A stretch of 64,000 nt of DNA from Octopus vulgaris. Taxonomy: Eukaryota. How positions within the stretch are numbered: the first letter of the stretch is position 1; each line of letters begins with the position of its first letter. The notes below the pieces were generated by a model, which searched no databases, was not told the DNA's origin, and saw only the letters and a program-made list of their open reading frames with translations. The translations under genes were made by a program, and so were the position numbers. This document shows positions 9,473 through 60,200 of the stretch, piece after piece. Location: positions 42,160,001 through 42,224,000 of the forward strand of contig OX597817.1 in assembly GCA_951406725.2 (NCBI GenBank). The letters run 5' to 3'.

Positions 9473-9890
9473 ATATATAATATTAATTAGAGACAAAACC
9501 ACTATTATGCAAATCAAACAAAGAAAGACTTAATCCAATACATAAAAAATTTTATATAAATTAAATAAAATTAAATTCGCCACTACAATTGTTTCGTGTC
9601 TCTTCTAAGGACATTCATAACTTAAAATTGAATAGAAGATCTGAATACCACCTGATGAATGTCCTTAGAAGAGACACGAAACAATTGTAGTGGCGAATTT
9701 AATTTTATTTAATTTTATTTAATTTATATAAAATTTTTTATGTATTGGATTAAGTCTTTCTTTATTTGATTTGCATAATAGTGGTTTTGTCTCTAATTAA
9801 TATTATATAATATTTTACTATAAAATTGGATTCAGTCCTAAATCTGATTTTTCCCTGTAAATTTGGATTTATTCCCTAATATTTATTATT
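9473..9890 (+). mobile_element. Fold-back Penelope-like remnant, family P-A: arms 9473-9618 / 9655-9808 plus 3' tail, in (TA)n
   Basis: ~146-bp near-perfect inverted arms; hammerhead at the junction; tail shared with 27289-27415. Confidence 0.85.
9648..9693 (+). ncRNA. Type-I hammerhead ribozyme motif
   Basis: CCAC-CUGAUGA-a-UGUC(cuuagaaga)GACA-c-GAAA-CAAUUG-UA|GUGG: stem I CCAC/GUGG, palindromic stem III ACAAUUGU, predicted GUA cleavage after 9689. Confidence 0.82.
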
Positions 9891-9977
9891 ATATATATAT
9901 ATATACACACACACACATGCATATATGGATACAGGACATCACCAACGGTGTAAATAACATGAAATACATAAACAACC

Positions 9978-10397
9978 GCAGACGCAGGAGTGGCTGTGTG
10001 GTAAATAGCTTGCTAACCAACCACATGGTTCCGGGTTCAGTCCCACTGCATGGCATCTTGGGCAAGTGTCTTCTGCTATAGCCCCGGGCCGACCAATGCC
10101 TTGTGAGTGGATTTGGTAGGCAGAAACTGAAAGAAGCCTGTCGTATATATGTGTATATATATATGTGTGTGTATGTGTGTGTGTGTTTGTGTGTCTGTGT
10201 TTATCCCCCTAGCATTGCTTGACAACCGATGCTGGCGTGTTTACATCCCCGTCACTTAGGGGTTTGGCAAAAGAGACCGATAGAATAAGTACTTGGCTTA
10301 CAAAGAATAAGTCCCGGGGTTGATTTTCTCAACTAAAGGCGGTGCTCCAGCATGGCCGCAGTCAAATGATTGAAACAAGTGAAAGAGTAAAAGAGTA
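9978..10397 (+). mobile_element. SINE family B, full copy (tRNA head + CORE-like CTTGGGCAAGTGTCTT + internal microsatellite + LINE-like tail)
   Basis: About 20 full or partial copies, e.g. 12100-12500(-), 15200-15730(-), 17895-18180, 35155-35580, 41265-41650, 46045-46475(-), 51705-52105(-); (GTAAAAGA)n tail. Confidence 0.92.
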
Positions 10398-10914
10398 ACC
10401 AAAAAGGACCCTTCATCAGTTGTCAGTTGTCTATCTACTCCACATTTCAAGCATTCAATGACAATATGAGTCTTCAAAGACAGTTGCTCCCATAAATTCT
10501 AAAATATAATTTAGGATTTATGGAGGGTCAAAAATTTGGGAACAAAAAAAAATGACATTGGAGACATAGAAAGGAAACCAAACAATATACATATATATAT
10601 ATATATATATATATATAAACACACATACACACACACACACATACATATATACATATATTTCACATATAAATGTCTCACTGTGGTTATTTAAGATGCAGTT
10701 TCCTACAATTTCATATAGCACTGTGGATAATTACAGAGAACAACGATAATGAACAATGGAGATAATTTGATAAATTGATGAGGAATACAAGTAGGAAAAT
10801 ATAATAACAAAATGTCTAATTAAAATTAATGACACCACTGTACACACTCAAAAGTGTAAGAAGAAGGTGAGCCATGGTGATGAGAAAATTTGAATTGCTG
10901 GATAAATTAAGAGC

Positions 10915-56222: not shown

Positions 56223-56894
56223 ATTTTTTAAATAAAACATAAATTCTATGTATATCTAATGAAGTTATTAAGTTGTATACTTACTCCACAATAAATTTTA
56301 ATGATTTGGTAATTTTCACATCTATTTCTACGAGAATTTAGCTCCATCTAATCTTTTTCGATATTATAATAATACCTTTACATAAGCCTAAATTATTATA
56401 CCCCATATAACCATACTTTACTCTTAATATAAAATATAAGATTTTCCCCCTCCAAAAAAATTAAATTAATTCTTTTTCTCTATATTTTCATTTTATAATT
56501 TTATTTTTGGTTACCTCCCTTCCATTGTAATTTAAGGTTTTTGGTATGTGAGTAAATTAATGCCTTATTTACTGGGAATCTCCTCTTCAAAAGATCTTCT
56601 AAATCTCCTTAATTAATATTTAAATCCTGATAAAAATAGATAATAATATTTAAATTTTTGAGAAATTGCTTGGTTTCTATTTCTCTCAAATAGCTCTACC
56701 CTCATGATCTTTGCATGTATTAGAAAGCTTTATAAAAATAAATTATAAAAAATTACCAATTATAAAAAAGTACCAATTATTTTGATTATAATCACCCCAT
56801 TTTGAATTATATGGATAATACCATACTGAATTCTGGTTCCTTTAACTTCAGTACCATATTCGACTGAATCTAAATTTTACTGAATATATATATA

Positions 56895-57052
56895 TCTAAT
56901 ATAGGATAAAATTTTTCGAAAAAAAACTTGATCAATGGCCAGCATATTAAAAATACCTTTAAAGGTTAAATTTATAAGTAACTTATAAAATAAGGGCAAA
57001 AGAAAAAATTCTATTTGGCATTAGAATTTTTTCTTTTGCCCTTATTTTATAA
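56895..57052 (-). mobile_element. Family P-C minimal copy: perfect 31-bp hairpin (56983-57013 / 57022-57052) plus tail
   Basis: Tail and arm homologous to 35069-35152 and 35581-35610. Confidence 0.82.
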
Positions 57053-57240
57053 TATATATATAGCCCGAGGCTATAGTACAAGAAACTTGCCCAAGGTGCC
57101 ACGCAGTGGGATGAACCTAGAACCATGTGGTTGGTAAGCAAGCTACTTAGCACACAGCCACTCCTGTGCCTATATATATATCTATTTGAATGTTTAATAT
57201 ACACTTATATACAAATTATGTGTATGAAGTGTATGTTTGT

Positions 57241-60200
57241 ATTGTTTAAATATATTTCCCAGTTAATATCATCGCTCATGTCAGAGCATAAATTGTCTTT
57301 ATCTTTAAGGATGTTGCTTTCCGTTTTCCTTATCTGTGTATCTTTATAATTTGCATATGACCAAGTATGCAGATATTCTTTGTGGATTGACTTTTAACAA
57401 TTTGCACATATTTCGAAGATCTTCTATCATGAACAAATCAAGCAATTTCTTTGATGGAAAACAGCAAACACATGCTTCTCTGAAATATAGACCATGTTTA
57501 GAGCCAATGAGAAAATCACTAAGCAGCCACTCAACTTGCCAGGAACAGCAGCTAAATTTCCCTCAAATCACACACTGTCCTTTTCTGAAATGACAGGAAC
57601 ACAATGGATAATGTGATTTAGATTTATAGTTTTAAATAAAAAGCAGGGAATAATTGCAGCTGGAATATCTTTGATCCTAGGTTTGCTCAAGCAGGGCAGA
57701 CCTGGGGTTAAACAGCAACAACTTAGACCCTGTATTAGATATTACAGGTTATGTTTTATATTATTATTATTAAAGACATCATACAATATCCAATATCCTT
57801 TCTACTCTAGGCACAAGGCATGAAATTTTGGGGGAAGGGCCCAGTCGATTAGATCAATCCCAGTACACAGCTGGTACTTAATTTATTGACCCCAAAAGGA
57901 CGAAAGGCAAAGTTGACCTCAGCAGAATTTGAACTCAGAATGTAAAGCTTGACGAAATACCACTTGGCATTTTGCCCAGCATGCTAACATTTCTGCTAGC
58001 TCGCCACCTTATACAGTATCCAATATTGTGATGTTGTTGAGTGAAGATATTGCGTCTATCAGGGGTTTGTACTGTCTATCAAGTCACAACATATTATTAT
58101 TATTATTAAGGCAATTTGGCTGGCAGAATTGTTAACATGCTGGACAAAATGTTCAATGGCATTTTATCCATCCTTATGTTCCGAGTCCAGATGCCACCAA
58201 GGTCAACTCAGCCTTTCGCTTTTTCAGTCAATAAAATAAGTACCAGTTGAGTACTGGGGTCGATGTAATCAACTTAGTAACTTCTCCTAAAATTGGTGGC
58301 CTTGTGCCAAAATTTTTTTTTATCATTTCATTACACATAAACCCCCACACTTTATGTCTGTCTTTGTATTGTCCACTCATCCTTCGCCCTTGCGGCAAAT
58401 AAATGAAGTCATTATTGTTGTTGTTGTTGTTATTATTATTATTTTTATTTTTATTATTATTAAGTTCTTTAATTGTTTACCCTATTTAAGCCCTCAAGTC
58501 AAATGCCATGCCAGAGCACTACCTTATAATTCAGCTACAAAAGACAAAAATCTAAATGAACGAAATGGGTCAATGAAATAGCCTCTAAGAGGTCTTTTGA
58601 GTAAACAGAAATAGGAGCTACATCCCTCACAAATCATTCAATATTCTCTCTGAAAAAGTGGGTAGAAATACATAGAATAAAATACTAATAGATACATGAT
58701 GCTTGAACAAAAGATGGAATGTTTGTGACTAGAATGTCTTTGATCATAGGTCAATAAGAATCAGGATGACCTGGGGCTAAACAATAGCTAAAACTAGAAT
58801 AAAAGAGAAGATTAATGATAAATGAAAAAGACATGGATTAAAATTGAAAATGATCAACACTAAAATACATACAATCACATGCACAGTCATACACACAATA
58901 ACATTAACAATACATATACATATTTGTGAGTGTGTGTATATGTGTGTGTGCGTGTGTGTGTATATATATGTGTGTGTATATATATATATATATATATATA
59001 TATATATATATAATCAAAATAAGCAACAAGGATTGCTTATTTTGATTATAATCACCCCATTTTGAATTATATGGATAATACCATGCCAAATTCTGGTGCC
59101 TTTTAACTTAAGTACCATATTCAACTGAATCTAAATTTTTACTGAACTGATATATATATATATATATATATATATATATGACTGGAGCCTGGTGCAGCCT
59201 TCTGTCTTGCCAATCCTCAGTCAAACCGTCCAACCCATGCCAGCATGGAAAGCAGATGTCAAACAAGGATGATGATGATGATGATGATGATACATACACA
59301 CGCACATACATACACACACACATGCACACACACATGCACACACATACACAGATACACACATATATATCATCATCATCATCATCAATATGCATATATGCAT
59401 ATTCATGCATGTATGCTTACTCATATATTATAATGTTATATAAATATTAGTAATGGTCTTATAAAATAATTTGCTAAAAAAAAAAAGAAGCCGTTTTAAG
59501 TAACAGTTGTGGAAGATAAACACATTGGATTAATGGAAGCGAGTAGTTGCTTTGCATTGAAATGTATGAGACCACTTCAAAACTCAAGTTGAATTTTCAT
59601 TTAAAAGTAATGCTTCCACAAATATGTATAAATCTTTTTACACAGACCTATGGAAATGGTGTTTTTGATTTCCTAATCAAACTAAATTGAATAAGTTTCA
59701 TGGAGAAATTATGAATAAAAGAAATGCTTTATCAATCTCCGAAATGAGAAAATATCAGATATTAATTCTCACAGCAATCCATTTGTATTAAAAATTCAAT
59801 AACTTTCTATTGGTTTGATATCAACATACCAGAGGCTAGAACTGATTTCTACACAACCATTTTAATCAATAAATATCTCTTCAAACATCTATCCCAGTTC
59901 TTCATGGATTTCAATGATTTATTTAGATGTTTTGAAAAGACAGCAAAGATAAAGAAATTTTATTTGATAAAGGCACACTATGTTTTTATAAAATAAAAAT
60001 TGATCATCAAAATTTTTCATTGATTTTTCTTTTATTTTTTTTTACTTATTGTTATTATTACTGTTGCTGTTTTTATTTTTTGTTTTTTGTTTTAATTTTT
60101 GGTCTATTTTTAATCTAAGGAATTGATGCAGTAAATAAGTATTCAAATTTCTTTATTAATTTCTGAGATACTTGACTGATTAACTTTTTCAGTACACACA

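Follow-up and report, generated by a model that had tools for sequence, protein, structure and literature searches.

Fold-back insertions in an Octopus vulgaris locus: probable products of Penelope-type enzymes and short candidate non-autonomous riders with predicted ribozymes

Introduction

How do short repeats come to lie, site after site, against an inverted partial copy of themselves? The question is raised by a 64,000-nucleotide stretch of Octopus vulgaris DNA (assembly GCA_951406725.2, contig OX597817.1, positions 42,160,001 to 42,224,000 of the forward strand; hereafter the window, numbered from its first letter). The window sits in a 2.8-Gb repeat-rich animal genome and contains microsatellites, short interspersed elements (SINEs) and remnants of long interspersed elements (LINEs) and mariner transposons; no clear host exon was seen within its 64 kb. 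An initial annotation of the letters alone listed 12 fold-back insertions of about eight families, here called P-A to P-H, and read them as 5'-truncated Penelope-type retrotranspositions finished by template switching or second priming.

Here we argue that each fold-back is very probably one insertion made by the enzyme of a Penelope-like element (PLE), consisting of two head-to-head cDNAs begun at two fixed points of the element RNA. Complex inverted insertions of endonuclease-containing (EN+) PLEs have already been published (PMC8557442, PMC3846280, PMC11167929; published work is cited here for the parts that bear on these insertions), and the fold-back architecture is thus known. The new part lies in the apparently undescribed non-autonomous riders, above all family P-F, and in the evidence for twin priming.

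Results

Gapped alignment of 18 regions, a scan for perfect arms and mapping onto natural reference copies showed inverted arms at all but one of the 12 sites, with lengths of 18-173 bp, complementarities of 83-100% and loops of 0-121 bp. At each of the 11 a tail is present on one side only, as first described, and the number of families stayed at eight. The remaining site, at 55218, has lost its right arm, and therefore this 1.6-kb form cannot fold back now. The arms of the site at 35069 actually lie at 35580-35725, because a later SINE inserted in the tail.

The outer ends of the fold-backs fall at two fixed points in each family and both inner ends vary independently, which agrees with the constant tail end and variable fold-back point proposed at the outset. 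In the genome searches behind these comparisons the best 40 candidates were scored per search, the first P-A and P-B searches favoured fold-backs of the query's size, and identical contexts were merged ahead of counting. The typical distance from the outer end of the arm to the end of the tail is 34 nt in P-D, about 51 in P-E, 71 in P-C, 72 in P-A, 76 in P-H, about 82 in P-G and 95 in P-B, measured relative to the references used, with copies reaching the reference end omitted and a few misassigned rows included. At five of ten evaluable window sites the arm, which has no tail, extends further upstream than the tailed copy. In counts subject to query-length bias, the arm is not the shorter half at 13 of 16 P-C, 17 of 28 P-B, four of four P-E, four of five P-D, seven of 13 P-A, four of 16 P-H and none of 11 P-G loci. 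Where the arm has private upstream sequence, with the tail found only on the other copy, neither half can have been copied from the other.

Target duplications of at least 9 nt flank 11 of 19 P-E and 10 of 17 P-F fold-backs, compared with 86 of 2,562 mismatched pairs (3.4%); three of the P-E cases are TA-rich, and duplications are unreadable inside TA tracts. These duplications, of 10-14 bp, surround arm, copy and tail together (in P-E and P-F, and at window sites 44005 and 53540). As they enclose the whole unit, each fold-back represents one event. The fixed outer ends, variable inner ends and enclosing duplications therefore point to two joined target-primed cDNAs and not to the snap-back of one.

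Insertion favours TA tracts in most families. At 10 of the 12 sites (TA)4 occurs within about 15 nt of an outer end (ends set by hand), compared with 9.6% of random window positions; the two other sites lie in (TCTA)n (13371) and in unique DNA (44005). Across the genome TA follows the tail in 30/30 P-A, 23/30 P-C, 17/30 P-G, 14/25 P-D, 14/30 P-E and 10/25 P-H copies (background 5.1%). P-F showed no TA bias, with simple-repeat flanks at 2 of 17 copies, and the preference for (TA)n tracts first proposed for all families does not extend to it. In the window, a P-B tail and a P-C tail stand back to back, sharing a TA tract of 12 bp (56884-56895), and nested or clustered PLE-type insertions recur in loci L002, L023, L040, L092 and L110.

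Family P-A was copied through RNA. One genomic copy (L241) bears a 1,093-nt GT-AG intron that ends just 5' of a hammerhead motif. With queries biased towards spliced copies, 39 distinct contexts proved to be precisely spliced (including the window copy at 9473), 14 unspliced and four otherwise arranged; the loss of this intron implies an RNA intermediate. Many spliced copies start at, or a few bases from, one position some 25 nt upstream of the donor; this position is likely the transcription start. In Drosophila Penelope, too, an intron ends at hammerhead stem I (PMC4209133). The longest P-A copy, of about 1.8 kb (L241 with L431), contains the intron and hammerhead, and no open reading frame (ORF) was found within it. 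The window holds two P-A fold-backs, both on the plus strand. The longer (9478-9893), in (TA)n, has its arm up to 9618 and a spliced copy at 9614-9893, with the exon junction at 9638/9639, a hammerhead motif at 9648-9693 and the tail at about 9813-9893. The shorter (27288-27421) has 22-bp perfect arms, no loop, and a tail.

Judged by its sequence, P-B is the end of an element that encodes reverse transcriptase (RT) and a GIY-YIG endonuclease (EN) with Hydra-clade motifs. The 55218 copy retains a GIY-YIG C-terminal remnant (55372-55587) that is 71% identical to locus L091. A genome search with this remnant gave 10,189 first-look candidates, of which 150 were scored. Among 45 distinct GIY-YIG endonuclease ends, 28 have P-B downstream in the same orientation. 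The ORFs of the long loci comprise RT, an Asn-rich linker, CxCX5C and GIY-YIG, and they carry RT YRDD, DKT, CxCX5C and CxxC/CxH motifs, all read by eye. In L091 one 579-aa frame spans RT YRDD to the EN end, L094 and L096 have two frames each, and L103 is a 3.6-kb fold-back enclosing the ORF. The DKT motif, CxCX5C linker, CxxC/CxH in the EN and (TA)n target of L091, L094 and L096 agree with the definition of the Hydra clade in PMC8557442. P-B also carries a pseudo-long terminal repeat (pLTR) with a hammerhead, a one-sided tail and an inverted 5' copy. The N-terminus of the P-B protein was not recovered, and RWK was seen only in another PLE family (L098:8459-10000). No spliced P-B form occurred among the contexts printed, and no P-B tail running on into an ORF was found. 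An apparent antisense ORF in the P-B 3' region had no tblastn support and was dropped.

Three P-B insertions lie in the window on the plus strand. That at 13371-13584, in (TCTA)n, has 64-bp arms, no loop and a tail at 13499-13584. The long form at 55218-56884 comprises an inverted arm (55218-55365) with a minus-strand hammerhead core at 55332, the GIY-YIG remnant, a 3' region interrupted by a LINE fragment at about 55780-56215, and, next to the deleted right arm, the tail (56777-56884). The short one at 59009-59149, in (TA)n, has 18-bp perfect arms, a loop of 6 and a tail. Long in-frame asparagine runs derived from (AAT)n occur in the RT-EN linker of PLE ORFs L091, L094-L099 and L104; runs of this sort have been described for rotifer PLEs (PMC3846280). 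Other PLE families were met as intact frames of 584 aa (L105:7310-9061, with Pfam GIY-YIG above the cut-off) and 514 aa (the L098 frame, with RWK and DKT).

Alignments suggest that P-D is probably the 3' end of another coding, Neptune-like PLE. L310 shares 942 bp with L315 and has a same-strand EN match that ends at -961, and L314 is similar; in L310 the shared P-D sequence comes within 19 bp of the endonuclease match. The window copy (24015-24143, minus strand) has a left-side tail and arms of about 40 bp. Among the families, extension into a coding PLE applies only to P-B and probably P-D; P-C, P-E, P-F, P-G and P-H are short and non-coding.

Type I hammerhead motifs occur in seven of the eight families; as in the hammerheads reported from PLEs (PMC4209133), their stem III is short or palindromic. 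A strict scan gave eight matches in 664 kb and none in five shuffles. In P-B stem I, compensatory change keeps 3.44 of 4 pairs over 32 contexts, compared with 2.73 after shuffling (maximum 3.16), a covariation that is inflated by related sequences. The motifs are candidate self-cleaving ribozymes.

P-C and P-G are retrozyme-like, ORF-less hammerhead units, and P-H is probably another, at 465-476 bp. The P-G (470 bp) and P-C (476 bp) units are closed loops: at all 30 loci of each that were selected for read-through, the tail runs on to the beginning of the same unit and in no case reaches an ORF. Their longest ATG frames are 75 aa (P-C) and 47 aa (P-G). P-H shows a period of about 465 bp in three loci. 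P-C and P-G inserts are dispersed, contain 1 to about 2.5 units and are variably 5'-truncated inside the upstream unit. Their 3' ends cluster, at 405-406 (13/30) and 472-476 (14/30) in P-C, two rows being one locus, and at 375-392 (20/30) and 470 (2/30) in P-G. Six of 30 P-G loci start at 234-245, near the hammerhead site at 226, a weak signal that we did not use, and the 5' ends of 30 P-C loci do not cluster at their hammerhead site. Circular or multimeric RNAs could have served as templates for the three families.

In the window, the first P-C fold-back (35069-35735, minus strand) has its tail at 35069-35154, the later SINE, and then the arms; the second, short one (56895-57052, minus strand) has a left-side tail and 31-bp perfect arms with a loop of 8. 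The P-G fold-back (48764-49214, plus strand) has arms of about 140 bp, a hammerhead motif at 48905-48974 and a tail at 49131-49214. The P-H fold-back (53530-53849, plus strand), which belongs to the hammerhead unit of about 465 bp, is bounded by a 10-bp target duplication at 53530 and 53840.

P-E is a non-coding element of about 215 bp, with top matches 97-99% identical, and 9 of 18 copies printed share a fixed 5' start. Its hammerhead stems are intact, and core residues C3 and G8 are swapped (G3-C8) in 11 of 13 copies. An engineered C3G/G8C double change partly restores cleavage (PMC11167929). The G3-C8 core is absent from the window copy at 39569-39822 (minus strand), which has a left-side tail and 96-bp arms.

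P-F is likely a SINE-like element that combines a tRNA-derived head and a hammerhead with a PLE-type end, judging by its layout: tRNA-like head, (AAT)n, hammerhead, arm and a tail of about 30 bp. BLAST placed the head immediately upstream of the body in 19 of 30 loci, and in three it is displaced by a later insertion; in an unbiased sample 5 of 7 head matches precede the body. A strict A plus B box pattern occurs in 5 of 30 P-F loci and in 6 of 5,000 random stretches. The boxes are those of the usual A and B consensus, and the head seems to resemble tRNA-Ser. RNA polymerase III (Pol III) may transcribe P-F. Behind 59 PLE endonuclease ends no autonomous partner sharing the P-F 3' end was found. 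The window copy (43991-44498, plus strand) has a 12-bp target duplication at 43991 and 44487; its inverted copy runs to 44235 and it alone bears the tRNA-like head (44169-44235, minus strand), and its tailed copy spans 44264-44484, with the hammerhead core at 44362. Another repeat recurrently occupies the (AAT)n spacer of P-F and parts head from body (L407, L416, L418, L426, L428). "Penelope-type" stands for these families, but "5'-truncated" does not fit many copies of P-A, P-E and P-F, which begin at a constant 5' point and not at random truncation points.

In a de novo census the window had 15 inverted repeats and block-shuffled sequence had none; the census overlooks 27289, 55218, 56895 and 59009, takes in non-PLE repeats, and replaces an earlier BLAST self-census that was discarded as too insensitive. 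With 15 inverted repeats per 64 kb, compared with 52 per 600 kb in six other blocks, the window is about 2.7-fold denser than this sample, so the dense seeding first claimed is real here but local. Of the eight families, the window contains 14 loci, eight of them present by construction, and the 600-kb sample 12. The RNA folds of the fold-backs are stable in prediction; DNA cruciforms are plausible solely for the short perfect cases at 27289, 56895 and 59009.

Other repeats share the window and the sample. At 3535-4762, with no adjoining TA, 560-bp inverted arms, 95% complementary, enclose a 111-bp loop; this repeat is outside the eight families and only short pieces of it recur in the sample. 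Positions 22971-23766, which have terminal inverted repeats of about 150 bp, 18466-19137 and 20313-21140 hold what we take to be Mariner-like transposase remnants. An abundant SINE forms inverted repeats through close opposite-orientation pairs (25661-26010, 41452-41893, 57810-58308), and SINE-like tandem arrays have units of 183 bp (36252-36806), 196 bp (29925-30312) and 65 bp (12885-13071). Further short inverted repeats lie at 19780-19933 and at 34788-34960, the latter possibly a ninth family, with a single further copy in the sample. Fold-back families absent from the window occur in sample blocks C1 (35368-35771), C10 (81512-81996), C4R (59583) and C27 (37536), those in C1 and C10 bearing hammerhead motifs. 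Decayed fragments are presumably of LINE reverse transcriptase (8327-9356), of a zinc-finger-like sequence (6948-7376) and of a LINE C-terminal region (55780-56215).

Discussion

Two cDNAs, each begun at its own fixed point of the RNA, would explain the anatomy of these insertions. A Penelope-like RT/GIY-YIG enzyme would make staggered nicks in both strands at an AT-rich site, and each nick would prime a separate cDNA, one of them starting at the outer site of the element RNA and the other at the inner; the two would then join head to head, at blunt ends or short homologies. In vitro, both strands were cut and extended by a PLE protein, and two RT start sites delimited the tail (PMC11167929). 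P-C, P-E, P-F, P-G and P-H may use a PLE enzyme in trans. Between the two routes offered initially, second priming is better supported than template switching by the private sequence in each half. Somewhat more tentatively, we favour the reading that a guild of small ribozyme RNAs parasitises Penelope enzymes, namely the closed-loop retrozymes, the G3-C8 215-nt element and the Penelope-dependent SINE P-F, with footprints that would attest one cDNA per start site and PLE-mobilised retrozymes.

The inverted arm could instead arise by template switching, through the snap-back of a single cDNA or the self-priming of an antisense RNA, as has been proposed for rotifer PLEs (PMC3846280). Half of the P-B fold-backs (14/28, in a sample biased to one size) have junction overlaps of 6-14 nt in a palindromic stem, and P-E and P-F each have a near-perfect palindrome at their fixed 5' end, such that a snap-back could still act at palindromic junctions. 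It predicts no private sequence, whereas private arm sequence is present at five of ten window sites; at 44005 only the arm has the head and only the other copy the tail. The outer end of the arm is fixed where single copies also stop, and the spliced P-A copies reveal a sense-strand template. We therefore regard a snap-back as improbable in general. A little more credit, though still little, goes to the reading of P-C, P-G and P-H as solo pLTRs or local tandem duplications of PLE ends and of P-F as a chance SINE-pLTR fusion. As start sites lie near the 5' end of PLE RNA (PMC11167929), solo pLTR inserts are expected (compare P-A), and only the 30-60 best-scoring loci per family entered our comparison. 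The consistent passage of P-C and P-G tails into the same unit at the selected loci, and the dispersal of these loci with truncation inside the upstream unit, tell against it; so do the P-F heads, which stand directly upstream of the body in most loci and precede it in most unbiased matches.

Inverted arms and AT-rich targets are also expected of miniature inverted-repeat transposable elements (MITEs), foldback DNA transposons or Helitron derivatives, and genuine terminal-repeat elements are present in the window (for example 22971-23766). The fold-backs differ from these in their variable fold point and one-sided tail, with no fixed symmetric termini, and in duplications of 10-14 bp in place of TA; intron loss, hammerhead motifs and the linkage to RT and GIY-YIG are further obstacles. 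A MITE origin, already doubted initially, is thus very improbable overall, and a MITE, DNA transposon or Helitron reading is refuted for P-A and P-B. Equally improbable is that the fold-backs arose at (TA)n as chimeras of long reads or through misassembly. There is no contig across a complete site, the contigs enter the 44005 element by only 24-33 bases, at or under the 31-letter bridging rule of the tool used, and run X1 may be the source of the assembly itself. Yet the arms are asymmetric and diverged (83-98% at longer sites), target duplications enclose the units, one unit is interrupted by a SINE, and P-A has lost its intron. Moreover, both flank junctions of 44005 are covered at depths of 42-57 in three runs of three studies, and opposite-strand joints occur in runs X1 and X2.

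Several results weigh against the insertion of twin cDNAs by PLE enzymes. Rfam found no hammerhead, at gathering or E-value level, and therefore the ribozyme calls rest on our own descriptor and covariation; in the P-D loci examined neither RT nor a hammerhead was found. Pfam gave no GIY-YIG match for L091, L096 and L098, and the match for L094, at 20.5 bits (E 6e-4), is under the cut-off of 22.6. ARAGORN predicted no tRNA in 10 P-F loci, and Rfam called none. Among the loci retrieved, no autonomous partner with a shared 3' end was found for P-A, P-C, P-E, P-F, P-G or P-H, and mobilisation in trans therefore rests on the shared footprint. Our tails, of 34-95 nt, mostly exceed the published 30-40 bp (PMC8557442, PMC3846280), and short-read contigs bridge none of the window's fold-back centres. 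A tail motif common across families, which we did not use, reached significance in just two of 28 pairs, P-C/P-H (z 5.4) and P-B/P-G (z 3.7).

The insertions otherwise resemble those of EN+ PLEs as reported in PMC8557442 and PMC3846280, with an inverted 5'-truncated copy at the 5' end, a one-sided tail, (TA)n bias, a pLTR intron, Asn-rich linker inserts and duplications of about 10 bp. In contrast to those elements, most families here are ORF-less, and P-A is found mostly without its intron, which PLEs are noted for retaining. The P-B relatives share with the Hydra clade (PMC8557442) a C-terminal GIY-YIG, DKT, CxCX5C, CxxC/CxH around E/N, a hammerhead and (TA)n; they differ in their long Asn-rich inserts, and the likeness lies in the motifs. 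The two start sites agree with in vitro work on PAc Poseidon (PMC11167929), in which two internal RT starts define the tail, both strands are cut and extended, and targets are AT-rich; as far as the text of that study bears on it, neither the inverted copy nor non-autonomous templates were modelled, whereas here the two starts map onto the halves of an insertion.

The short units invite comparison with non-LTR (long terminal repeat) retrozymes, tandem units that are short, low in GC and ORF-less, carry a type I hammerhead and have been proposed to be non-autonomous PLE derivatives (PMC7229834; bioRxiv 10.64898/2026.07.22.740005). In those sources, as cited here, the link to PLEs is by co-occurrence and pLTR similarity, and neither tail nor inverted arm is reported; our units (465-476 bp) are mostly dispersed 1-2-mers with a full PLE integration footprint. 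P-F resembles the SINE-like hammerhead elements of Schistosoma (PMC6765202) in apparently combining a Pol III-type promoter with a hammerhead in a short repeat. The Schistosoma elements form tandem arrays with no PLE footprint stated in the part cited, whereas the monomers of P-F are dispersed and combine a fixed 5' head with a PLE tail, an inverted arm and a target duplication. Another study (PMC13282606) covers Penelope-like elements and many unclassified SINE families, and in the sections that concern us this anatomy is not among them. We found no PLE-mobilised tRNA SINE in the open literature; Repbase, Dfam and subscription journals were outside our scope and may hold descriptions.

Annotations are likely to list such elements wrongly, as MITEs, SINEs or unknown repeats. 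The retrozyme-like units here are tied to PLE enzymes by an integration footprint and not by phylogeny, which bears on a point that the 2026 preprint, in the part cited, leaves open (10.64898/2026.07.22.740005). Short natural templates with two mapped starts make the unexplained inversion step of PLEs testable in vitro. If P-F does ride on Penelope enzymes, the partners of SINEs would include a new class.

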